Source of the DNA: a virus
Taxonomy: Duplodnaviria; Caudoviricetes
IMG/VR virus record: IMGVR_UViG_3300033066_000360
Coordinates: 20,154 to 84,153 of that record
Strand: one strand, 5' to 3'
Length of the DNA stretch: 64,000 nt
The first letter of the stretch is position 1. Every line of letters starts with the position of its first letter. This document shows, piece after piece, positions 3,509-12,176 of the stretch. A program made the translations under genes and the position numbers. A model generated the notes under the pieces. It saw only the letters and a program-made list of their open reading frames with translations, did not search any database and was not told the origin of the DNA.

Positions 3509-3515
3509 TCTTCAT

Positions 3516-3589
3516 GCCCTTGTAGCTCATCGGACCAGAGCAGGAAGTTTCTACCTTCAAGGCAGGGGGTTCAATTCCCTCCAAGGGTA
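3516..3589 (+). tRNA. trnR: tRNA-Arg(TCT)
   Basis: Cloverleaf, anticodon loop TTTCTAC, T-loop TTCAATT. Confidence 0.85.
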
Positions 3590-3604
3590 TCCATAGGAGG
3601 ATAT

Positions 3605-3838
3605 ATGAATTTGTATTGCGGAACAATTGTTGGTCGGATTAATGGCGATGTAAAGAAAGTTGTTTCTTGCTATCGACTGGCAAAAACAGAAGAGAAAGCA
3701 AAGGCAAGCATAGCCAAAGATTACAAGGATCTTGATGAATTGTCTATTTGCATAGATCTCATTGATCCTGAAGTAATTCGCGCTTGGTACGAGAAGGTTG
3801 TTATCGAGCCTATCGGGGAGGGTCTAGATGTTTCCTGA
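3605..3838 (+). CDS. hypothetical protein
   Basis: ORF with GGAGG SD. Confidence 0.65.
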   Translation: MNLYCGTIVGRINGDVKKVVSCYRLAKTEEKAKASIAKDYKDLDELSICIDLIDPEVIRAWYEKVVIEPIGEGLDVS

Positions 3839-4034
3839 TCCAGATGTATGGCGGTGGGGTAGAGATGACTCCGAACCACCGGACAATCCGTATAAACATT
3901 TAGAAGAAGAAGACGATGAAGATGGTGATCCTGATCTTTGGGAGGATGAAGAGGAGTTGATTGTGGAAGGTGAGCCAGTAAACGAAATGGATTGGCTTAT
4001 TTCTTATGTCTCTCTAGTGCATCATCGTCTATAA
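3828..4034 (+). CDS. small highly acidic protein
   Basis: D/E-rich ORF with SD. Confidence 0.55.
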   Translation: MFPDPDVWRWGRDDSEPPDNPYKHLEEEDDEDGDPDLWEDEEELIVEGEPVNEMDWLISYVSLVHHRL

Positions 4035-4035
4035 T
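4030..4035 (+). promoter_or_regulatory. -10 element upstream of the tRNA array
   Basis: TATAAT about 20 nt upstream of tRNA-Leu(TAG). Confidence 0.45.
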
Positions 4036-4054
4036 GTTTCCAATCGGAAACAGT

Positions 4055-4137
4055 GCAACCATGGTGAAATGGCAGTCACAGCAGGCTTAGAACCTGCCGC
4101 CCTAAAAAGCGTGGGGGTTCAAGTCCCTCTGGTTGTA
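4055..4137 (+). tRNA. trnL: tRNA-Leu(TAG)
   Basis: GCAGG-CTTAGAA-CCTGC arm, long variable arm. Confidence 0.9.
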
Positions 4138-4248
4138 TATGCAGAGCAGGCACTCCTGTAGACACGGCGCTATGCAGAAGGTGGCTATACCGGTAGGATC
4201 CTACTGGGACGAGCGGAAGCGAGAGATACCTCCCATTCTCTCTTAAAT

Positions 4249-4330
4249 GCAAGTATGGCGGAATGGCATACGCGGGAGCCTGAGAAGCTCTGCTCGAAAG
4301 GGCGTGAAGGTTCGAGTCCTTCTATTTGCA
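4249..4330 (+). tRNA. trnL: tRNA-Leu(GAG)
   Basis: Loop CTGAGAA, long variable arm. Confidence 0.9.
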
Positions 4331-4429
4331 CTGCATTCGATGGTGTCTGCGCGGAGTCCGGAATCATCTGGCAGAACTAGAGAACCGGCCCACAACATGG
4401 CCAAGTTAGTGGGGAATCCGTAAATTCAT

Positions 4430-4502
4430 GGAGAAGTAGCCCAACGGCAGAGGCAACAGTCTCAAGAACTGTTTAGTGAGAGTTCGAATCTCTCTTTCTC
4501 TA
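4430..4502 (+). tRNA. trnL: tRNA with CAA (Leu) anticodon, short variable region
   Basis: ACAGT-CTCAAGA-ACTGT, 5-nt variable loop. Confidence 0.8.
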
Positions 4503-4569
4503 CTGACCGCTCCTTGTGGTTTCTTTTTGTTTTGTAGCTTTTTGTTTTCCACAAGGGGATGGTCTCCAT

Positions 4570-4644
4570 GCAAGTGTGAGGCAACCGGCAGACCTGATAC
4601 ACTTAAAATGTGTCGTTCTATGGGTTCAAATCCCATCACTTGTA
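4570..4644 (+). tRNA. trnL: tRNA-Leu(TAA), short variable region
   Basis: ATACA-CTTAAAA-TGTGT, 6-nt variable region. Confidence 0.85.
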
Positions 4645-4661
4645 TCTAATATGAATATAAT

Positions 4662-4735
4662 GGGGAAATGCGCTAATGGTTAACGCGAACAATCTTATAA
4701 ATTGTTGATTGAACGTTCAAGTCGTTCTTTCCCTA
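4662..4735 (+). tRNA. trnI: tRNA-Ile(TAT)
   Basis: ACAAT-CTTATAA-ATTGT, A73. Confidence 0.85.
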
Positions 4736-4768
4736 CTACCACAAAAGAAGAACTTTTTTGTGTATATA

Positions 4769-4879
4769 CGGTCAAGGTGGCTAATGTGTTGGTTGATAGC
4801 TGCGAGAGTCTGGCGAGCACTTTCAATTGGCATCCACTACGTGGCGTATGTCGGACGGTGAGCATGGTCATGTGTTGAC
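4769..4879 (+). ncRNA. candidate ncRNA closed by a GGTCAA/TTGACC terminal stem
   Basis: End-to-end pairing of an inter-tRNA spacer of about 110 nt. Confidence 0.3.
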
Positions 4880-4930
4880 CCAGAAGTACAGCATGAATCA
4901 GCCGTGGGAAGCCGATAGATTCCCAAATAC

Positions 4931-5003
4931 ACACTGTTAACTCATCGGTCAGAGTGCCTTTCTTACAAATAGGAAGCAGGGGGTTCAATTCCCTCACAGT
5001 GTA
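4931..5003 (+). tRNA. trnV: tRNA-Val(TAC)
   Basis: Loop CTTACAA, acceptor ACACTGT/ACAGTGT. Confidence 0.9.
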
Positions 5004-5054
5004 TAGATGGTTAGTAGATATATCGCGCGTTAGGTATCGAAAGCCATCTTTCAT

Positions 5055-5127
5055 GCTCTATTGGGCAAGCGGCCAAGCCACCTCTCCTTCAAAGAGGCAA
5101 TCGTGGGTTCGAATCCCACATAGAGTA
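5055..5127 (+). tRNA. trnE: tRNA-Glu(TTC), C at position 33
   Basis: CCTCT-CCTTCAA-AGAGG. Confidence 0.85.
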
Positions 5128-5129
5128 CT

Positions 5130-5220
5130 GTTCCTAGTGAGTCCAAGGTTCGGTAAGGAACACATTCACTTTCGGTTGAAAGTGGTGTAAAGCAGGAATC
5201 CGACTTCTCACGTTTCCTGC
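5130..5220 (+). ncRNA. three-hairpin RNA with loop1-loop3 complementarity
   Basis: Stems GTTCCT/AGGAAC, CACTTTC/GAAAGTG, GCAGGAA/TTCCTGC; loops GTGAG..AAG..TCGG vs CCGA-CTT-CTCAC. Confidence 0.55.
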
Positions 5221-5225
5221 GCTAT

Positions 5226-5297
5226 GCTTCGGAAGCCGAAGGGATAGGCGCTACTCTGTCTAAGTAGTTGAAGTGGGTTCAAATCCCATCCGGGGCG
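5226..5297 (+). tRNA. trnD: tRNA-Asp(GTC)
   Basis: CTACT-CTGTCTA-AGTAG. Confidence 0.9.
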
Positions 5298-5404
5298 CTA
5301 AATAGTAGGAGGATCAAAATAACGCTTGTTCTCGGTCTAAAATGACCAACCACTACTATGATGAAGATGTATTACTTGTAAGAGTGTCAACAATACGTCT
5401 TTAT

Positions 5405-5477
5405 GCTTCTTTCGGCAAGCGGCTTAAGCCACTTGGTTCTCAACCAAGAGATCGCCGGTTCGAATCCGGCAAGAAGC
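5405..5477 (+). tRNA. trnE: tRNA-Glu(CTC)
   Basis: CTTGG-TTCTCAA-CCAAG. Confidence 0.9.
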
Positions 5478-5578
5478 ACTTGGAGTGATGGATATAACTC
5501 CAGCGTAACAGCCATGGATGAAGCGTGTCCACGCATAGATTCTAGGTATCATGTAGAATACGTGAAGTTCTACAAAGT

Positions 5579-5649
5579 AGCAGGGTAGAGTAGCGGCCAC
5601 TCACCGGCCTCATAAGCCGTTTACACGGGTTCGATTCCCGTTCCTGCCA
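5579..5649 (+). tRNA. trnM: tRNA-Met(CAT), A1:C72 mismatch (initiator-like)
   Basis: CGGC-CTCATAA-GCCG; unpaired 1:72. Confidence 0.8.
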
Positions 5650-5718
5650 TCACTATCTCTATGGCGCACATGAGATAGCGTCCCGTAAACGGGGGACCGT
5701 ACGTGAACTGGTCATTAT

Positions 5719-5792
5719 CTGGGTATAGCTCAATCTGGAAGAGCACTTGCTTTGGGAGCAAGACGTTAGGGGTTCAAATCCCTTTACCTAGA
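5719..5792 (+). tRNA. trnP: tRNA-Pro(TGG) copy 1
   Basis: CTTGC-TTTGGGA-GCAAG. Confidence 0.9.
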
Positions 5793-5805
5793 CTCAGTTC
5801 ATGTT

Positions 5806-5941
5806 TGGATTGGCTCGCCCGATTAAGCTACTAGTGGCTGTAATCGTACCCCTCAACAGGGTAAAAGCGTCCCCTTCTGAATCCCCTGAACTGCCGTAAG
5901 AAAACTTGTTGAGAGTTTTCGTGGAGTACGTTAAAAGCTCC
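5806..5941 (+). ncRNA. multi-hairpin RNA with a perfect 7-nt kissing-loop pair
   Basis: TACCC-CTCAACA-GGGTA (5847-5863) and GAAAACT-TGTTGAG-AGTTTTC (5900-5920); the loops are exact reverse complements. Confidence 0.65.
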
Positions 5942-5945
5942 ATAT

Positions 5946-6020
5946 ATAGGTGTATATCAGTCTGGTCAGATTGCTCCCCTTGGAAGGGAGTGGGCACAGG
6001 TTCAAATCCTGTCACCTATA
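5946..6020 (+). tRNA. trnP: tRNA-Pro(TGG) copy 2 (A37)
   Basis: CTCCC-CTTGGAA-GGGAG. Confidence 0.85.
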
Positions 6021-6122
6021 CTCTGATGAATTTCGCTGAATCGTCTAAGGACGAAGGAGCGGGAAATCGAAGACGTAATCAATGTGTCATAGCATCGAGA
6101 GGCATACGATAAGTGCCAAAAC

Positions 6123-6205
6123 GGAAGGACGGCAATAGGCGTAGTACACTGTCTTGAAAACAGAAAGCCGTAAAAGGCTTGTGGGTTCGACTCCCACTCC
6201 TTCCT
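6123..6205 (+). tRNA. trnS: tRNA-Ser(TGA)
   Basis: Loop CTTGAAA, long variable arm. Confidence 0.9.
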
Positions 6206-6308
6206 CTGGATCCCTTGCTTTGGGCATGTAGCTACTAGGCGGCGGCAAGAAGTGGTCTGGATACATCTAGCTAATATAAGCTCTATGGCCCAATATGGTG
6301 TATCTTAT

Positions 6309-6394
6309 GGAAAGGTGACGGAATCTGGTAATCGTTCCTCTTTGCTAAAGAGTGAGTCCGTAAGGACACGCAGGTTCAAATCCTGTCCTTTCCT
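6309..6394 (+). tRNA. trnS: tRNA-Ser(GCT)
   Basis: Loop TTGCTAA, long variable arm. Confidence 0.9.
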
Positions 6395-6398
6395 CTGT

Positions 6399-6471
6399 GC
6401 CGCTCTAGCTCAAATGGTAGAGCACTAGTCTGAAGAACTGGGGGCAATGGGATCGTTACCCATGGGCGGCT
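6399..6471 (+). tRNA. trnF: tRNA-Phe(GAA), atypical T-loop ATCGTTA
   Basis: CTAGT-CTGAAGA-ACTGG. Confidence 0.85.
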
Positions 6472-6476
6472 TGTAT

Positions 6477-6560
6477 GAGCAGAAGTCAGATACGGTTTGC
6501 TTGTGACTGTCTGTAAAACAGTTCCCTTCGGGGGTGGGGGTTCGAATCCCTCTCTGCTCA
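6477..6560 (+). tRNA. trnY: tRNA-Tyr(GTA)
   Basis: ACTGT-CTGTAAA-ACAGT, long variable arm. Confidence 0.9.
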
Positions 6561-6561
6561 C

Positions 6562-6590
6562 TTGACAAATCTCCAAATGGAGAGTATTGT
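6562..6590 (+). promoter_or_regulatory. sigma70-type promoter upstream of tRNA-Asn
   Basis: TTGACA-17 nt-TATTGT. Confidence 0.65.
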
Positions 6591-6600
6591 GTTTGTATGT

Positions 6601-6673
6601 TCCCGTGTAGCTCAGGGGTAGTAGCAGCGCACTGTTAATGCGCCAGTCGTTGGTTCAAATCCAGCCATGGGAG
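6601..6673 (+). tRNA. trnN: tRNA-Asn(GTT)
   Basis: GCGCA-CTGTTAA-TGCGC. Confidence 0.92.
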
Positions 6674-6707
6674 CCTATTTCCGACTGGAAATAAATAGGA
6701 GGAATAA

Positions 6708-7139
6708 ATGAAGAGGTTACTTGTGTTATGGGTCGCGCTCGGCTTGATGTTTGCTGCATGTGGTGCGCCTACTGGCGATAGAAGCTATGGTGTTGCCAAG
6801 AGGCTTGGAGAGGGGCGGCATATCGTGTCGAATGTCGAGAAGCTCAACAATGGCATGAATGTGATCTGGTTCTTTGGAGAGAACGATTACGTTTACTGTA
6901 CGTTTGATGACAAATTGGCTGCAATGGCTCGTGCAATCAAGAACGATCCGGGTCCAAATGACGGAATTGCTCTGTATGAATACAGAGATTTCATCACTGG
7001 AGATCCTGAGTTTGGGCTAGATCCATCTGGTTATTACTGGTGGTCTACTTGTGGGGTTGGAATTACTGCCACATACAAGTCCAAGCTAATGTCCATCAAG
7101 CCATTGCGTCCACTAGTGAATGAAGTGGTTTTGAGATAA
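6708..7139 (+). CDS. predicted lipoprotein
   Basis: Signal peptide with lipobox FAAC. Confidence 0.7.
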   Translation: MKRLLVLWVALGLMFAACGAPTGDRSYGVAKRLGEGRHIVSNVEKLNNGMNVIWFFGENDYVYCTFDDKLAAMARAIKNDPGPNDGIALYEYRDFITGDPEFGLDPSGYYWWSTCGVGITATYKSKLMSIKPLRPLVNEVVLR

Positions 7140-7172
7140 CTAAATAGTCGGGATGTTACAATCCCGGCATAC

Positions 7173-7246
7173 GCTAATGTAGCTCAATCCGGCAGAGCAA
7201 CTCCTTTGTAACGAGAAGGTTGGAGGTTCAATTCCTCTCATTAGCT
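7173..7246 (+). tRNA. trnT: tRNA-Thr(TGT)
   Basis: Loop TTTGTAA. Confidence 0.88.
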
Positions 7247-7250
7247 TTGT

Positions 7251-7305
7251 GGGTCTGGATGTAAAGGCTGTCCTAGGCGTGTCGGTTCAACTCCGATCAG
7301 ATCCA
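7251..7305 (+). ncRNA. tRNA-like RNA lacking an anticodon arm, G3:U70/A73
   Basis: Acceptor GGGTCTG/CAGATCC-A, T-arm GTCGG-TTCAACT-CCGAT, only 23 nt between them. Confidence 0.65.
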
Positions 7306-7311
7306 CTAAAT

Positions 7312-7384
7312 GGGGACACATGTACCAAGGGGGCGACTGATACTTGCAATATCGGTGTGAGGAGTTCGATTCTCCTTGTTTCCA
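7312..7384 (+). tRNA. trnA: tRNA-Ala(TGC)
   Basis: Loop CTTGCAA, G3:U70. Confidence 0.9.
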
Positions 7385-7388
7385 CTAT

Positions 7389-7461
7389 GTATGCAGACTC
7401 AAACGGTGATGAGAACACTCTGATAAGGTGTCCGTGTGAGGTTCAATTCCTCTTGCATACA
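7389..7461 (+). tRNA. trnI: tRNA-Ile(GAT)
   Basis: ACACT-CTGATAA-GGTGT. Confidence 0.9.
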
Positions 7462-7466
7462 CTACA

Positions 7467-7478
7467 GCCCTACCGGGC
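7467..7478. repeat. GCCCTACCGGGC hairpin motif
   Basis: Exact copy between two tRNAs. Confidence 0.8.
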
Positions 7479-7484
7479 TAATAA

Positions 7485-7556
7485 GCACATATAGCTCAGT
7501 GGAAGAGTTAGCGCCTTCGAAGCGCGGGGTCGGGAGTTCGAATCTCTCTATGTGCT
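7485..7556 (+). tRNA. trnR: tRNA-Arg(TCG)
   Basis: GCGC-CTTCGAA-GCGC. Confidence 0.88.
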
Positions 7557-7558
7557 CT

Positions 7559-7640
7559 GGGAGAGGGACAAGCGGTGTTTGACTGTTCCTCCTAGCGGTA
7601 AGAGATCGTGTTCGGCGTAAGTTGTTCGGTCCCTCTCCCT
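7559..7640 (+). ncRNA. rod-like candidate ncRNA with an 11-bp terminal stem
   Basis: GGGAGAGGGAC/GTCCCTCTCCC. Confidence 0.5.
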
Positions 7641-7644
7641 TTAT

Positions 7645-7717
7645 GCGCGTGAAGCTCAACGGAAGAGCATTTCCCTGCGAAGGAAAAGGTTTAAGGGTTC
7701 AATTCCCTTGACGCGCT
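7645..7717 (+). tRNA. trnR: tRNA-Arg(GCG)
   Basis: TTTCC-CTGCGAA-GGAAA. Confidence 0.85.
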
Positions 7718-7860
7718 TAGCGTAAGGATGCATACCTGCGCTAACCTTGGGTAGTGAAGGGTTGTGCACTACTGCTATCTGGTGACGCTACAATACCAGC
7801 GCCTCTTGCCGACGAAAGACGCAAGGAGTTCTTGCTGGTTCTCTCCAAAAGAATCAGGTG
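7718..7860 (+). ncRNA. candidate ncRNA with an H-type pseudoknot and hairpins
   Basis: AACCTT/AAGGGTT stem; loop GTAGTG pairs with CACTAC (7767-7772). Confidence 0.45.
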
Positions 7861-7862
7861 AT

Positions 7863-7935
7863 GCGGATATGGCTCAGTTGGTAGAGCAGGATCTTGCCAA
7901 GATTCAGGTCGCGGGTTCAAGTCCCGCTATTCGCT
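7863..7935 (+). tRNA. trnG: tRNA-Gly(GCC)
   Basis: Loop TTGCCAA. Confidence 0.92.
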
Positions 7936-8008
7936 TGAGCGGTTCGACTTTTAGTTTTCCAAAGGTAAATCTAGGTCGTCCGCTCTTTTATGTTAAAAGG
8001 AGGTCGGA

Positions 8009-8527
8009 ATGAAGAATATCTTTGTCATCAGCGATACGCACTTCGGTCACGAGCTTATGACCACCGTACTGACAGATCAAGGCAAGCGTCTCCGGCCTTG
8101 GAATACGACTGAGGAGATGGATGAAGTTCTCATTGCCAATTGGAATTCTGTTGTTACTCCAAGTGACAAGGTTTACCATCTGGGAGACGTATTCTTCCCC
8201 CGTAAAGGGAGAATGCTCTTGTCTCGACTCAATGGAGATAAGGTTTTGATTCGTGGGAACCATGATGGTCATCCAATCAAGGATTACCTAATGGGATTCA
8301 GGGACATCCGGGCCTTACATGTGTTGGACGGAGTAATCATGACTCATGTTCCAATCCATGAACAGAGTCTTTCCCGCTGGAAAGGCAACATTCATGGACA
8401 TTTGCACGAGCATCGAATTCTTGATCGGCGTGGATTGCCTGATCCGCGTTATACTACTGTCTGTGTGGAACACATCAACTACACTCCTAAAGAGTGGTCG
8501 GTGGTTCGTAGTGAACTGGTAGCTTAG
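8009..8527 (+). CDS. metallophosphoesterase
   Basis: SDTHFGH, HLGDV, GNHD, THVP, HGHLH. Confidence 0.9.
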   Translation: MKNIFVISDTHFGHELMTTVLTDQGKRLRPWNTTEEMDEVLIANWNSVVTPSDKVYHLGDVFFPRKGRMLLSRLNGDKVLIRGNHDGHPIKDYLMGFRDIRALHVLDGVIMTHVPIHEQSLSRWKGNIHGHLHEHRILDRRGLPDPRYTTVCVEHINYTPKEWSVVRSELVA

Positions 8528-8585
8528 TGGCTAAAGCAGCATGCTCTTAACATGCCTATCGTGGGTTCAAATCCCACCCGGTTCT
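8513..8585 (+). tRNA. trnK: tRNA-Lys(CTT), overlaps the last 15 nt of the upstream CDS
   Basis: GCATG-CTCTTAA-CATGC. Confidence 0.9.
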
Positions 8586-8586
8586 T

Positions 8587-8658
8587 GTACTCGTGGTGTA
8601 ATGGTTAGCACGATAGGCTGTGGCCCTGTTAGAGCCGGTTCAAATCCGGTCGAGCACT
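8587..8658 (+). tRNA. trnH: tRNA-His(GTG)
   Basis: ATAGG-CTGTGGC-CCTGT. Confidence 0.85.
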
Positions 8659-8674
8659 TAAATAGGAGGATTAA

Positions 8675-8902
8675 ATGGAAACAATGTGGGTTATTAAGCG
8701 GGATCGAGCCATTGAAGGTTCATCCGATATTATCTTTATTTGCAAGACGGAACATACAGCAAGGTATCTTGTTGAAATACTGAAAGGAGCCGAGCAAAAA
8801 GCTCGCAAGTTCAATAAGACTCAATCTGTTACCATTGATAAGACTTCATGGACAGTTAGTAGAGGAGATTCGTTTGAATACGACAGTTATCCAGTTTATT
8901 AG
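8675..8902 (+). CDS. hypothetical protein
   Basis: ORF with AGGAGG SD. Confidence 0.65.
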   Translation: METMWVIKRDRAIEGSSDIIFICKTEHTARYLVEILKGAEQKARKFNKTQSVTIDKTSWTVSRGDSFEYDSYPVY

Positions 8903-8989
8903 AGATATAGTTCTTGTGTTTGTTATCACTCTCCCGTTCTTTGCTATCGGGCTTCTAATACAAATGGTTCATAAATTCAGGAGGAAATA

Positions 8990-9229
8990 ATGGAAATTAC
9001 AAATACAACCTACATCATTACATTCATCACAAAGGGTGGGTCTTATAACACCACAATGTTTGATCCTGTTGATGGTGGTTATCAAGCAATTGATAAGTTT
9101 ATCGCTGCCTACATGAAGGCAAACCCAAGTATTGTTGAACATACAAAGAGAATGGTCATTGGAACACCGGTTTTTAGAGAGCGTGCCATTGGAAAGGACT
9201 TCAATGATGTTTATGAGGTGGTCAAGTGA
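8990..9229 (+). CDS. hypothetical protein
   Basis: ORF with AGGAGG SD. Confidence 0.65.
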   Translation: MEITNTTYIITFITKGGSYNTTMFDPVDGGYQAIDKFIAAYMKANPSIVEHTKRMVIGTPVFRERAIGKDFNDVYEVVK

Positions 9230-9462
9230 AAACAGCGGTGCAGTATCTCAATGCCGCAGATCGAGTATTCAAAATACAACAGGACTACAGGTTTGTCGGA
9301 GTTGACTATGAGCGAAGAGTTGGTCTAATCACAGAGGCAAAGAATCTTGCCGCCGAGTTTGGACTAGATCAGTCCATATACTTGGCGAATTGTACTCCAG
9401 AAGAGTATTTCCTTGGATTGGAAAGACTTCTTGGGAGAGCGGCAGTAGACGCTGTAGAATAA
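9226..9462 (+). CDS. hypothetical protein
   Basis: GTGA overlap, SD. Confidence 0.6.
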   Translation: MKTAVQYLNAADRVFKIQQDYRFVGVDYERRVGLITEAKNLAAEFGLDQSIYLANCTPEEYFLGLERLLGRAAVDAVE

Positions 9463-9471
9463 AAGAATAGT

Positions 9472-9543
9472 GGGTTTGTAGCTCAATGGCAGAGCGGGAG
9501 ACTTTTAACCTCCGCGTCGTAGGTTCGATTCCTACCAGACTCA
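9472..9543 (+). tRNA. trnK: tRNA-Lys(TTT)
   Basis: Loop CTTTTAA. Confidence 0.9.
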
Positions 9544-9559
9544 TATAAAATTGAATAAA

Positions 9560-9631
9560 GGGTGTGAAGCGTCATGGCGATGCACTGAACTCCAAATCCA
9601 GCAACAGCAGGTTCGATTCCTGCCACGCCCG
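9560..9631 (+). tRNA. trnW: tRNA-Trp(CCA)
   Basis: Loop CTCCAAA. Confidence 0.85.
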
Positions 9632-9640
9632 TAGAGACTA

Positions 9641-9730
9641 GTGGAGGTTTCCAACCATCACGAATGCTCGAAGAGAAGCTTGGCTCTTAATAATTCAAGC
9701 AGTTCCGTGGGGTCAGCTTCAAGACTCCAC
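9641..9730 (+). ncRNA. candidate structured ncRNA
   Basis: GTGGAG/CTCCAC closing stem; inner loop AAGCT complementary to AGCTT at 9715. Confidence 0.4.
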
Positions 9731-9734
9731 AAAT

Positions 9735-9807
9735 GGCTACTTGGCCAAGTGGAAAGGCGTCTCCCTGCAAAAGAGATACCGCGCTGGTTCGATTCCAGCA
9801 GTAGCCT
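9735..9807 (+). tRNA. trnC: tRNA-Cys(GCA)
   Basis: Loop CTGCAAA, U73. Confidence 0.9.
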
Positions 9808-9809
9808 CT

Positions 9810-9962
9810 TGGGGTGGATGAGAGCGAAAGCTTAAGGATCCTCAACTGTATATCCAGAACAGTGATTATGGACGTTTCCGAAGCCCGATAGCTCGGACGA
9901 GAGCCGTTGCTCGTAATAATGTCGGGAGTTGTTATGGGACCATTCTCTCTAAAATGAACGGC
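9810..9962 (+). ncRNA. candidate pseudoknotted ncRNA(s)
   Basis: CCCGATA/TGTCGGG and ACGAG/CTCGT stems; loop GCCGTT pairs with AACGGC (9957-9962). Confidence 0.45.
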
Positions 9963-9968
9963 CCATAC

Positions 9969-10039
9969 GCGAATATGGCCGATAGGCTAGGCTCCACGCC
10001 TCCAACGTGGCTAGACGGGTTCGATTCCTGTTATTCGCT
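9969..10039 (+). tRNA. trnG: tRNA-Gly(TCC), C at position 33
   Basis: CCACG-CCTCCAA-CGTGG. Confidence 0.85.
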
Positions 10040-10258
10040 TTTGCCGCACATGTTCAGAGTCAATTCCACACCTAGGCAATATGGATGCGATATGACATGC
10101 TTACGCAATCCTTCTCTCTCTTCGGATCAGTAAGTAGGGACGGACACCAGCACCGGCAAGGCTAACGCTGGATTTTGCTAGTTACTACAAATTAGCTCTT
10201 ATCCTTTCACTGTTGTAAAGGACGCTTTGGCCATTGTGCAACGTTAACAATGGCACAT

Positions 10259-10330
10259 GATCTAGAAGCTCAATGGACGAGCAAGATTTTCCTAAAATCT
10301 GGGCTGTGGGTTCGAGTCCCATCTAGATCT
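10259..10330 (+). tRNA. trnR: tRNA-Arg(CCT)
   Basis: AGATT-TTCCTAA-AATCT. Confidence 0.9.
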
Positions 10331-10441
10331 TAGCCAACCGCGTGGTTGGTGAAGAGGGTAGAGGTTTTTATTCAGGGTTATCTTTCCAGCTGCCCGTGGT
10401 GATTGAGCCTTTACCCTCTTAGTCTTTTTCAGGAGGAACTT

Positions 10442-10696
10442 ATGAATGACAGAACATGGGCATTTCTAGAAGCAATCAAGAACATGGCGCTTAGCATTAT
10501 GCCGCTATATGTCGCGTTTGAGAATGATAAATTCCGCTTAGATCTTGTCGTAGAGATGAGACAAATGGAACAAACCCTCAAAAAGCTACATGCCAGTATC
10601 AAGAAGTCGGGGACTTGGGGGGCATCCGAGAGGGAACAGTACATTACTATCGACAAGAGAATGGATGAGATACTGTATATCGGTGAAAGGGGCTAG
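10442..10696 (+). CDS. hypothetical protein
   Basis: AGGAGG SD before ATG 10442. Confidence 0.65.
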   Translation: MNDRTWAFLEAIKNMALSIMPLYVAFENDKFRLDLVVEMRQMEQTLKKLHASIKKSGTWGASEREQYITIDKRMDEILYIGERG

Positions 10697-10758
10697 AAAG
10701 GCATTCGACAGCGAGAGTGGGTTCAAACGGCCCAGTCTTATACCCGATACTTTCGTTG

Positions 10759-10855
10759 GGGGAAGAAGGGTTTCGACGGTAAGTGATGGCATAAATGGAC
10801 TTGTCTAAAACCCAGATGATCTTATCGGACGCAGGTTCAACTCCTGCCTTCTCCA
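10759..10855 (+). ncRNA. ssrA: miniature tmRNA-like RNA (97 nt)
   Basis: GGGGAAG/CTTCTCC-A acceptor with G3:U70; GG..TTCGAC; P2 GGTAAG/CTTATC; 3' GGAC-GCAGG-TTCAACT-CCTGC. Confidence 0.8.
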
Positions 10856-11259
10856 TATAAAGAGGAATATGTTGCAATTATTTTAAGCGCAAATTCATAC
10901 GCATCTTTAGCGCGTATTCCTGATTTTGGGGGCTTTGTCCAAAGCTCAAGATTATCTGGAGAATTGTCATCACGAATGCCATTCTTATGATGAACCGTTT
11001 CTTCCGGAAGCAGATATCTTCCAATCATGGATTCCATGACCAAGATGTGTTCAAAAATATAATGTCCCTTTCGGGGATGTCCGGGTGGACGAAGAATGAG
11101 CTTGTAGCCCTTTTTATGCAAAGATCCTTTGCTTTTCTTTCTCTGAAAACTGGCTCTTTCTAGGTTAAAGCATCTAATACACGACTTGGCTCTAATTCCG
11201 CATTCCTGTCCACAAATCGGACAAGTCTTTTTGCGATTCCAACTCTTTTGTTTATTCAT
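10837..11259 (-). CDS. HNH homing endonuclease with N-terminal Zn ribbon
   Basis: CPICG..CIRC; EHILVME..VHHKNGIRDDNSPDNLELW. Confidence 0.9.
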   Translation of the reverse strand: MNKQKSWNRKKTCPICGQECGIRAKSCIRCFNLERASFQRKKSKGSLHKKGYKLILRPPGHPRKGHYIFEHILVMESMIGRYLLPEETVHHKNGIRDDNSPDNLELWTKPPKSGIRAKDAYEFALKIIATYSSLYGEGRS

Positions 11260-11320
11260 ATAGGGAATTATACACGGATTAATGGGTTTGATTCCCCGCT
11301 AGTCCACTAATAGGAGGAAC

Positions 11321-11584
11321 ATGATCTTTGAGGTGGAGATCCGCAAGAAGGTCTTTGAATTCGGATATGTCCGAGTAGAAGCCAAGAATGAAGAGGAGGC
11401 TCTTCAAGTTGCCCAAGACATTGCAGATGGTGATGAAGATGGGATTGAATGGGATTCCATGACGGAAGCAATCGAAGACTCTCTAGAAGCAAGAAATCCT
11501 GCCGAGTGGACTAACAACGTCATGATTGGCGACAGAATGGCTGTCCCGGTCCTGCAAGAAAACGGCTCCTATATATTGGAGTAA
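11321..11584 (+). CDS. small protein, DpnD/PcfM-like pattern
   Basis: FEVEIRKK..VRVEAKNEEEALQVA. Confidence 0.6.
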   Translation: MIFEVEIRKKVFEFGYVRVEAKNEEEALQVAQDIADGDEDGIEWDSMTEAIEDSLEARNPAEWTNNVMIGDRMAVPVLQENGSYILE

Positions 11585-11590
11585 GGAGGA

Positions 11591-11842
11591 GTGATGATCG
11601 AGTTTCTTAAACGCAAGGGCTTTGCTCTTGTTCCTGAGTGTGGCCCAGATTATTGGCACAAGACATTTCCAATCGGAAATATTGTCTGGAGAATCAGCGT
11701 CTCTTTTGACGATTGGGGAGTGCAATTCATCTCTATTGGCGGGACCGATAGGGGATGTGTCACTCTTTTCAGGGAAGACATGAAGCTTCTTCTACCCATT
11801 CTTCGAACAATGACCCTTCTCATGGGAAAGAATGAAGTGTAG
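11591..11842 (+). CDS. hypothetical protein
   Basis: ORF with SD. Confidence 0.6.
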   Translation: MMIEFLKRKGFALVPECGPDYWHKTFPIGNIVWRISVSFDDWGVQFISIGGTDRGCVTLFREDMKLLLPILRTMTLLMGKNEV

Positions 11843-11851
11843 AATGGCCGT

Positions 11852-11924
11852 AGTCCTATGGTCAAATGGTATGACGGAATGCTCTGAACATTCAAGTCGT
11901 TGGGTTCAATTCCCCGTGGGACTG
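11852..11924 (+). tRNA. trnQ: tRNA-Gln(CTG)
   Basis: GAATG-CTCTGAA-CATTC; imperfect T-stem. Confidence 0.85.
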
Positions 11925-11939
11925 CTATAGGAGATAAAT

Positions 11940-12077
11940 ATGTTTCAATGTATCGGAAGTGATGCGTATTGCTTGGCTGCAATCAAGCTTACGGAAAACA
12001 TCTTTTGGGGCGTGGTTCTTGTAGTGGTTCTCTTCGGAGTTGGCTACTGGTTCTACAGACTCATAAAGGATTTGTAG
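11940..12077 (+). CDS. small membrane protein (45 aa) between the two Gln tRNAs
   Basis: AGGAG SD; MFQCIGSDAYCLAAIKLTENIFWGVVLVVVLFGVGYWFYRLIKDL. Confidence 0.55.
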   Translation: MFQCIGSDAYCLAAIKLTENIFWGVVLVVVLFGVGYWFYRLIKDL

Positions 12078-12148
12078 TCTCTTAGCTCAATTGGCAGAGC
12101 GGAACACTTTGAATGTTTAGGTTAGTGGTTCAAGTCCACTAGGGACTG
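12076..12148 (+). tRNA. trnQ: tRNA-Gln(TTG)
   Basis: AACA-CTTTGAA-TGTT. Confidence 0.9.
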
Positions 12149-12176
12149 TAAATAGGAGGAAATATGTATAAGATCT

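Follow-up and report, generated by a model that had tools for sequence, protein, structure and literature searches.

The locus lies at the end of a cluster of 33 tRNA genes in an 84-kb IMG/VR record of an uncultured phage, whose completeness is estimated at 65%; all positions given below are those of the window, i.e., the whole 64,000-nt stretch of this record that was analyzed. On the left, an 84-aa ORF (10442 to 10696, plus strand), found in the ORF list and with homologues at the same position in related phages, runs into an RNA gene that is present as two separated pieces. The first is the 5' remnant of a resident, outer mini-tmRNA, the O-type allele (10690 to 10759, plus strand), and is made up of the acceptor 5' strand GGGCTAG (10690-10696), a 13-nt D-loop analogue that ends in TTCGAC (10697-10709), a closed P2 hairpin of 9 bp (10710-10718 paired with 10749-10757, with the inner stem GGGT/ACCC), and the first GG of the GGAC motif. 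The TAG stop codon of the 84-aa ORF sits within the acceptor 5' strand, and the resulting 7-nt overlap between the protein gene and the RNA gene was seen in all O-type loci as well as in all loci with the mosaic M-type allele described below. The second piece, the 3' remnant (11284 to 11306, plus strand), holds the last 3 nt of the T-stem 5' strand, the T-loop, and the T-stem 3' strand (GGG, a 7-nt loop, and CCC; 11284-11296), followed by CG (11297-11298), the acceptor 3' strand CTAGTCC (11299-11305), and the discriminator A (11306), with CTA thereafter (to 11309). The two acceptor strands of the outer element pair at 7 of 7 positions, including G3:U70. The conserved right flank of the locus comprises the CTA trailer, a ribosome-binding site, and a downstream 87-aa ORF (11307 to 11584, plus strand; the ORF itself spans 11321-11584), and an Rnl-type RNA ligase gene is found 1.2 kb downstream. 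An earlier note on this DNA had listed these elements, all of which are present where it placed them; its length of about 95 nt for the rejoined outer element is corrected here to 93 nt.

Between the two remnants lies a complete inner mini-tmRNA of 97 nt, the I-type allele (10759 to 10855, plus strand), which scored 57.7 bits on the Rfam tmRNA model RF00023, against a cut-off of 47, with both model ends (1-374) matched and 33 nt in place of 306. Its acceptor, GGGGAAG/CTTCTCC, contains G3:U70 and is followed by A73, and TTCGAC, P2, GGAC, and a 5-bp T-arm are all present. On R1, a covariance model built only from the intact alleles of relatives, the inner copy gave a full-length match of 73.5 bits. 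As judged from its sequence, the inner allele, which has every feature of the mini-tmRNA family, would be the working copy. ARAGORN, a tool that was not built for such small forms, missed the inner RNA and likewise the outer halves when rejoined. Within the inner loop, positions 10784-10792 read GCA-TAA, a possible alanine resume codon with an immediate stop; the M-type allele reads GGA-TAA at this place, i.e., the codon is not conserved.

Directly after the inner RNA gene come a relic ribosome-binding site, an ATG, and a 5-codon stub (10856 to 10877, plus strand), identified by BLAST against the relative L044. On the opposite strand, a gene for a 140-aa HNH_3 endonuclease (10837 to 11259, minus strand; Pfam PF13392, E value of 1.6e-9) runs toward the inner RNA gene, and the two genes share 19 bp at the 3' end of the latter. 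The nearest homologues of the protein share only about 50% identity with it; in an alignment with its homologues, the HNH core and the four zinc-binding cysteines were invariant, and the gene is intact as far as its reading frame and motifs tell. Its nearest homologues have a first N-terminal zinc ribbon that is missing here, and the activity of the protein may be impaired given this absence. A promoter and terminator scan placed two terminator-like hairpins on the plus strand within the HNH antisense region. The right end of the insert is a 24-nt spacer (11260 to 11283) for which no counterpart was found in relatives, the BLAST alignments stopping at 11284 and a short-word search returning nothing. 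A second, distant HNH-like open frame of 183 aa is present in the same phage record outside the window (G000:C1:7982-8089).

We searched public assemblies for homologues of both flanking small proteins and compared the contigs that carry them with the window. A single uninterrupted mini-tmRNA of 97 to 99 nt, with no HNH gene, was found at the same locus in L054, L049, L042, L047, L039 to L041, and L044 to L046; these intact alleles scored 51 to 57.6 bits on RF00023, all of them reaching the cut-off. The first 70 nt of the intact 97-nt O allele of L042 (L042:3608-3677) are identical to window positions 10690-10759 (70/70), and its last 23 nt differ from 11284-11306 at a single position (22/23), a likeness far beyond chance. 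The closest empty-site relative, L054, encodes an 84-aa protein identical to that of the window, shows 95.9% identity across the 566-nt left flank with a single mismatch in the 318 nt that adjoin the junction, and differs from the 5' remnant at one position; overall, the flanks of the two are 92 to 96% identical. In the BLAST alignment, L054 breaks at 10759 and resumes at 11284, with ACCG in L054 standing against 524 nt in the window. The insert is thus 524 nt long (10760-11283) and replaces 4 nt of the intact allele (nucleotides 71-74), namely the last two bases (AC) of the conserved GGAC motif together with the two that open the T-stem. A 3-nt GGG is present at both ends of the insert, and the junction can therefore be slid by 3 nt.

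These comparisons bear directly on the earlier note, which had proposed that a cassette carrying its own divergent allele of the RNA invaded the resident allele, had called for the junctions to be defined, and had tied its reading to the existence of an uninterrupted allele in related phages and to conservation of the complementarity between 10690 and 11299. The uninterrupted allele is present at the same locus in L054, L049, L042, L047, and L039; the same acceptor pair recurs in the uninterrupted alleles of relatives; the junctions fall at 10759 and 11284; and the insert consists of a complete divergent mini-tmRNA and an HNH_3 gene, where L054 is empty. In IMG/VR, no close relatives were recovered when a 703-aa protein and the small proteins on either side of the locus served as queries, and phages in GenBank gave no BLAST match.

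The filled site was seen in the window, L052, L053, and L055 to L061, with L054, L049, and others being empty. An assembly error is excluded, because the 1143-nt locus of the window recurs without a single difference in nine further contigs, which come from separate JGI and Logan samples. The ten filled-site assemblies belong to one strain, being 99.6 to 100% identical over whole loci. The filled loci among L052 to L061 had been considered as different genetic backgrounds on account of differing gene calls; at this level of identity they represent the same strain and provide no evidence of spread. We also compared the contigs of four partial holders with the window, where parts without contig cover do not count as absence. 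In X5, an L047-type downstream gene follows the HNH gene and the 3' remnant, which here has the wild-type loop C, and in X6 the HNH-to-remnant junction is joined to a third gene. The filled site hence occurs with at least three different downstream genes, a count in which the independent backgrounds rest on the two short contigs of X5 and X6, all full-length filled-site contigs being of one strain. X7 has an empty M-type mosaic allele on a 788-nt contig together with a 151-nt contig that is identical to window positions 10764-10914, i.e., the inner RNA and the 3' end of the HNH gene; its contigs cover this part of the insert and neither the rest of the HNH gene nor either junction. The X7 data suggest that empty-site and cassette-bearing phages share a habitat.

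The inner and outer alleles, each exactly 97 nt in intact form, are distinguished by two compensated pairs in the acceptor and three in the T-stem as well as by changes in P2, and 8 of the 17 T-arm positions, which adjoin the insertion point, are different. Because of these differences in acceptor, P2, and T-stem, while the flanks are 92 to 96% identical to those of L054, the inner allele appears to be foreign and not a local duplicate. Consistent with this, its central module closely resembles the one in the M-type allele of L044 to L046, and the alignment of L044:674-783 with window positions 10766-10873 extends past the RNA 3' end, where the relic ribosome-binding site, ATG, and stub align with the start of the ORF that comes after the RNA gene in L044. 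Given this resemblance to the start of the post-tmRNA ORF of relatives, the relic would be donor flank brought in with the insert, and the donor would have had the same gene order, with the HNH gene at the start of that ORF. Had the resident mini-tmRNA instead been duplicated in tandem in situ, with HNH insertion and divergence following later and nothing acquired horizontally, one would expect the 5' remnant to align with the inner copy, and it does so over its full length (the score was reached by none of 500 shuffled sequences, or by 4 of 500 once the first 20 nt were left out). We nevertheless regard such an origin as very unlikely, as the two copies differ in every helix between nearly identical flanks, the inner copy closely resembles the L044 allele in its central module, the inner copy carries a foreign 3' flank, and a tandem pair is seen in none of the relatives. 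An un-nested I allele, i.e., a donor without O remnants beside this HNH gene, was not found by pattern scans of metagenome contigs, viral contigs, and bacterial genomes; the scans were weak and missed the L044 sequence itself too.

In the outer allele, the AC of GGAC and two T-stem nucleotides have been lost, leaving a T-stem of 3 bp, and the T-loop carries a C56-to-T change at 11289. This C is universally conserved; it is present in 6 of 6 intact alleles and in the contigs of runs X5, X6, and X7, and the change is found in the strain of the window only. With T-stem bases lost and the T-loop C changed, the outer allele is best described, from its sequence, as a disrupted pseudogene that has begun to decay, two dead fragments and not a split functional RNA. 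Model searches agree: the outer halves gave no RF00023 match, positions 10697-10758 matched R1 locally at 49.2 bits (E value of about 1e-11) without the T-arm, and the 3' piece alone scored 10 bits on R1, no better than ordinary tRNAs.

The acceptor strands of the outer element are still 7/7 complementary with G3:U70, an RNA ligase gene is nearby, and the ends of the inner RNA would be cut by the usual tRNA-processing enzymes; from these one might argue that the outer element is still a functional split gene, its halves, made from one long transcript or from separate ones, pairing through the 7-bp acceptor or being joined by the phage RNA ligase to yield a second mini-tmRNA. We find this hardly credible. 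Four nucleotides of the intact allele are gone, a 3-bp T-stem is left, and the universally conserved T-loop C is mutated in the strain of the window only; P2 closes inside the 5' half, so that contact between the halves would depend on the acceptor stem alone; they are kept apart by about 450 nt of antisense HNH RNA with the two terminator-like plus-strand hairpins; the gene is in one piece in every relative; and the 3' piece reached just the 10 bits noted above on the family model. The damage to the outer T-arm likewise argues against a long or spliced outer RNA, of the kind that the earlier note had suggested looking for by RT-PCR.

Other forms of interrupted tmRNA gene were considered and rejected. 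A tmRNA split by a group I intron was dismissed after a permissive Rfam scan returned no intron family at E values up to 10 in 10550-11450. For a circularly permuted two-piece tmRNA (RF04321, RF01849, and RF01850), the halves are in normal 5'-to-3' order, and RF04321 reached 20.7 bits (cut-off, 47) in a match where coding sequence of the HNH gene is paired with the 3' end of the inner RNA. An integrase-borne island in the tmRNA 3' end was likewise set aside, since the HNH gene is the only ORF of at least 60 aa with a family match in the insert and the terminal repeat is 3 nt.

The explanation that we favor overall, with a probability of roughly 70%, is that a foreign segment carrying the I allele and a free-standing homing HNH gene inserted into, and killed, the O allele. 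The ancestral order would have been the 84-aa ORF, one 97-nt mini-tmRNA (the O allele), and the 87-aa ORF, as kept in L054 and L049. A 524-bp foreign segment would then have replaced 4 bp at the boundary of the GGAC motif and the T-stem, its cargo being the complete divergent 97-nt I allele, about 20 bp of the native 3' flank of that allele, and the convergent HNH_3 gene; the resident allele would have lost part of its T-stem at insertion and gained the T-loop mutation since. The founding capture was probably illegitimate and mediated by microhomology and not an event of classical homing, because the junctions have no long homology and share only the 3-nt GGG. As for the nuclease, its gene shows the marks of a free-standing homing endonuclease, with an intact catalytic motif, no intron or intein, and filled and empty sites in close relatives, and it would cut O-type alleles near the GGAC/T-stem junction. 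The I allele is probably immune to it, because 8 of 17 T-arm positions differ from the O allele. The two remnants and their flanks could then serve as homology arms, such that repair of the double-strand break would copy the nuclease gene and the spare allele into intact O alleles.

The insertion could also be real and the HNH gene a mere passenger, a captured piece of another phage (a tmRNA with a neighboring nuclease gene) having arrived by generic illegitimate recombination in a mosaic hot spot without site-specific cleavage and persisting by drift or ordinary recombination. The junctions, which show a 3-nt microhomology and a 4-nt loss only, are in keeping with such a course, as are the gain and loss of small ORFs of 92 aa and 72 aa at the same post-tmRNA boundary in relatives and the lack of linkage between HNH homologues and tmRNA or tRNA genes: no tRNA or tmRNA genes were found near the HNH relatives in L037, L038, and L062, and no HNH_3 genes near the other IMG/VR mini-tmRNAs. 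The break, however, has hit a conserved RNA gene where it is most conserved, and homing endonucleases typically choose such targets. Moreover, an intact HNH gene is the sole protein gene of the insert, the insert carries exactly one complete divergent copy of the very gene that it destroyed, and at least three different downstream genes accompany the filled site. Ordinary recombination downstream of a single insertion would explain the X5 and X6 contexts as well as homing does. Weighing these points, we judge the passenger account unlikely.

A further step from the insertion of a foreign segment with a homing nuclease would be to see the insert as a naturally occurring cleave-and-rescue unit directed at an RNA gene: its nuclease would cut O alleles at the GGAC/T-stem junction, the immune I allele would restore function, and the 524-bp unit would spread to co-infecting phages with the dead halves as arms. 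This proposal is tentative, and we would put it somewhat short of even odds. If it is true, the mosaic M-type alleles would be traces of an arms race within a 97-nt gene, and the changed M-type T-stem could be a cleavage-escape variant. With the empty site, the filled site, the exact junctions, and the early decay of the victim allele all visible, the locus offers a fully resolved natural invasion, and its intact, nested, and mosaic alleles are natural substrates for work on nuclease specificity.

Several known systems resemble this arrangement in part. In phage T4, intronless homing has reportedly been described for SegF at gene 56, SegG at gene 32, MobE at nrdB, and SegB in the tRNA region. 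As in these Seg and Mob systems, a free-standing nuclease gene without intron or intein adjoins a conserved phage gene, its presence and absence are polymorphic among close relatives, and a divergent donor allele of the target travels with the nuclease gene; the location in a tRNA cluster is like that of SegB. In T4, co-conversion replaces the resident allele; in the window, the resident allele encloses both the spare copy and the nuclease gene and its two halves are left, and the target, at which cleavage is presumed, is a stable RNA gene of only 97 nt. Aeromonas phage Aeh1 is said to have a gene split by an endonuclease gene (nrdA-a, mobE, and nrdA-b), both halves of which are functional and assemble. 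The window likewise has an HNH-type gene inside a phage gene with no self-splicing element, whereas its two halves are damaged and function would come from the complete second copy within the insert.

Among interruptions of tmRNA genes themselves, a clostridial tmRNA is said to have a group I intron in its T-loop, and the 3' end of ssrA to harbor genomic islands or prophages. The break in the T-arm region and the displaced 3' fragment that persists downstream of the insert are shared with these cases; in contrast, the present insert has no intron core or integrase, brings a whole replacement gene and not just a 3' part, and is flanked by a 3-nt repeat. Synthetic cleave-and-rescue (ClvR) gene drives reportedly link a nuclease to a cleavage-resistant copy of the gene that is destroyed, and the insert would do the same if the presumed resistance of the I allele holds; it differs in being natural, in a phage, and aimed at an RNA gene, with drive behavior that is putative. 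In the papers that could be searched, we found no description of a nuclease gene nested in the tmRNA or tRNA gene that it destroys together with a spare copy, and none of phage mini-tmRNAs or of any comparable tmRNA gene that houses a nuclease gene.

The earlier note had also argued, from two divergent versions of equal small size, that the miniature form is a conserved family, and this idea gains ground from several sides: both alleles are 97 nt long, additional members exist, and covariation supports the fold. A pattern scan followed by Rfam searches yielded nine more IMG/VR contigs with tmRNAs of 84 to 110 nt, matched end to end above the cut-off. When 13 mini-tmRNAs were aligned, 96.5% of cells paired and 18 of 24 pairs showed compensatory changes, in an alignment that was fitted to the model and somewhat favors the structure; slid controls fell to 40 to 55% paired. 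G3:U70 is present in 13 of the 13. The 7-bp acceptor, G3:U70, and the discriminator A are common to the inner copy, the outer element, and all relatives, and an intact 5-bp T-arm with a conserved T-loop follows GGAC in the inner copy and in the intact alleles but not in the outer allele of the window. The distance from TTCGAC to GGAC is only about 48 nt, and the mRNA-like domain and pseudoknots of a canonical tmRNA are absent. No reading frame is common to the O, M, and I alleles, and the O loop is free of stop codons in every frame. As no tag frame spans the alleles, the RNA would act at most like the tRNA-like half of a tmRNA. A real function of this tag-less form is supported by the several allele classes of constant length, the strong covariation, and the invariant alanine identity pair, and the 97-nt phage tmRNA with a tRNA-like domain only looks like a maintained, exchangeable gene. 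The 84-kb record, estimated to be 65% complete, contains no match to PF01668 (SmpB), and host SmpB would presumably have to serve. Jakobid mitochondria are said to have tmRNAs without an mRNA-like region. The phage RNAs resemble them in having a tRNA-like domain only, alanine identity, TTCGAC and GGAC, and no pseudoknots, and are unlike them in being phage-borne, 84 to 110 nt long, and divided into several recombining allele classes.

The M-type mosaic allele (L044:666-763, L045, L046, and the 788-nt contig of X7) combines an O-type acceptor 5' strand and D-loop with an I-type P2 and loop, and it has its own compensated T-stem, TTGGG/CCCAA. Such combinations suggest exchange between allele classes, with TTCGAC and GGAC as the points of recombination. 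The first gene after the CTA trailer and the common ribosome-binding site (window positions 11307-11320) varies among L039, L042, L044, L047, and L049, being a 92-aa, a 72-aa, or an 87-aa ORF. The RNA gene is directly followed by the 87-aa ORF in L049 and L048, as in the window, and other relatives have the extra 92-aa or 72-aa ORF at this boundary. Going by these gene orders, the boundary right after the mini-tmRNA 3' end is a mosaic hot spot with a fixed breakpoint.

Further RNA features were noted in the surroundings of the locus and in another phage. A 55-nt tRNA-like element at window positions 7251-7305 has a 7-bp acceptor with G3:U70, A73, and a CTA trailer, and it matches the tmRNA models weakly from end to end (18 bits on RF00023 and 14.9 bits on R1); it may be an even smaller relative of the mini-tmRNAs. 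Many of the 33 tRNA genes (window positions 3515-12149), like the outer remnant, are followed by C-T-N, often CTA, in place of CCA, and none of the 33 encodes the full CCA. Among the tRNAs, tRNA-Arg(CCT) at 10259-10330 is the best match to R1 (25.8 bits), and its acceptor, GATCTAG/CTAGATC, resembles that of the O-type mini-tmRNA. Lastly, a HEARO RNA (RF02033, 170.6 bits; L024:794-1003) is located about 5 kb from another phage mini-tmRNA.
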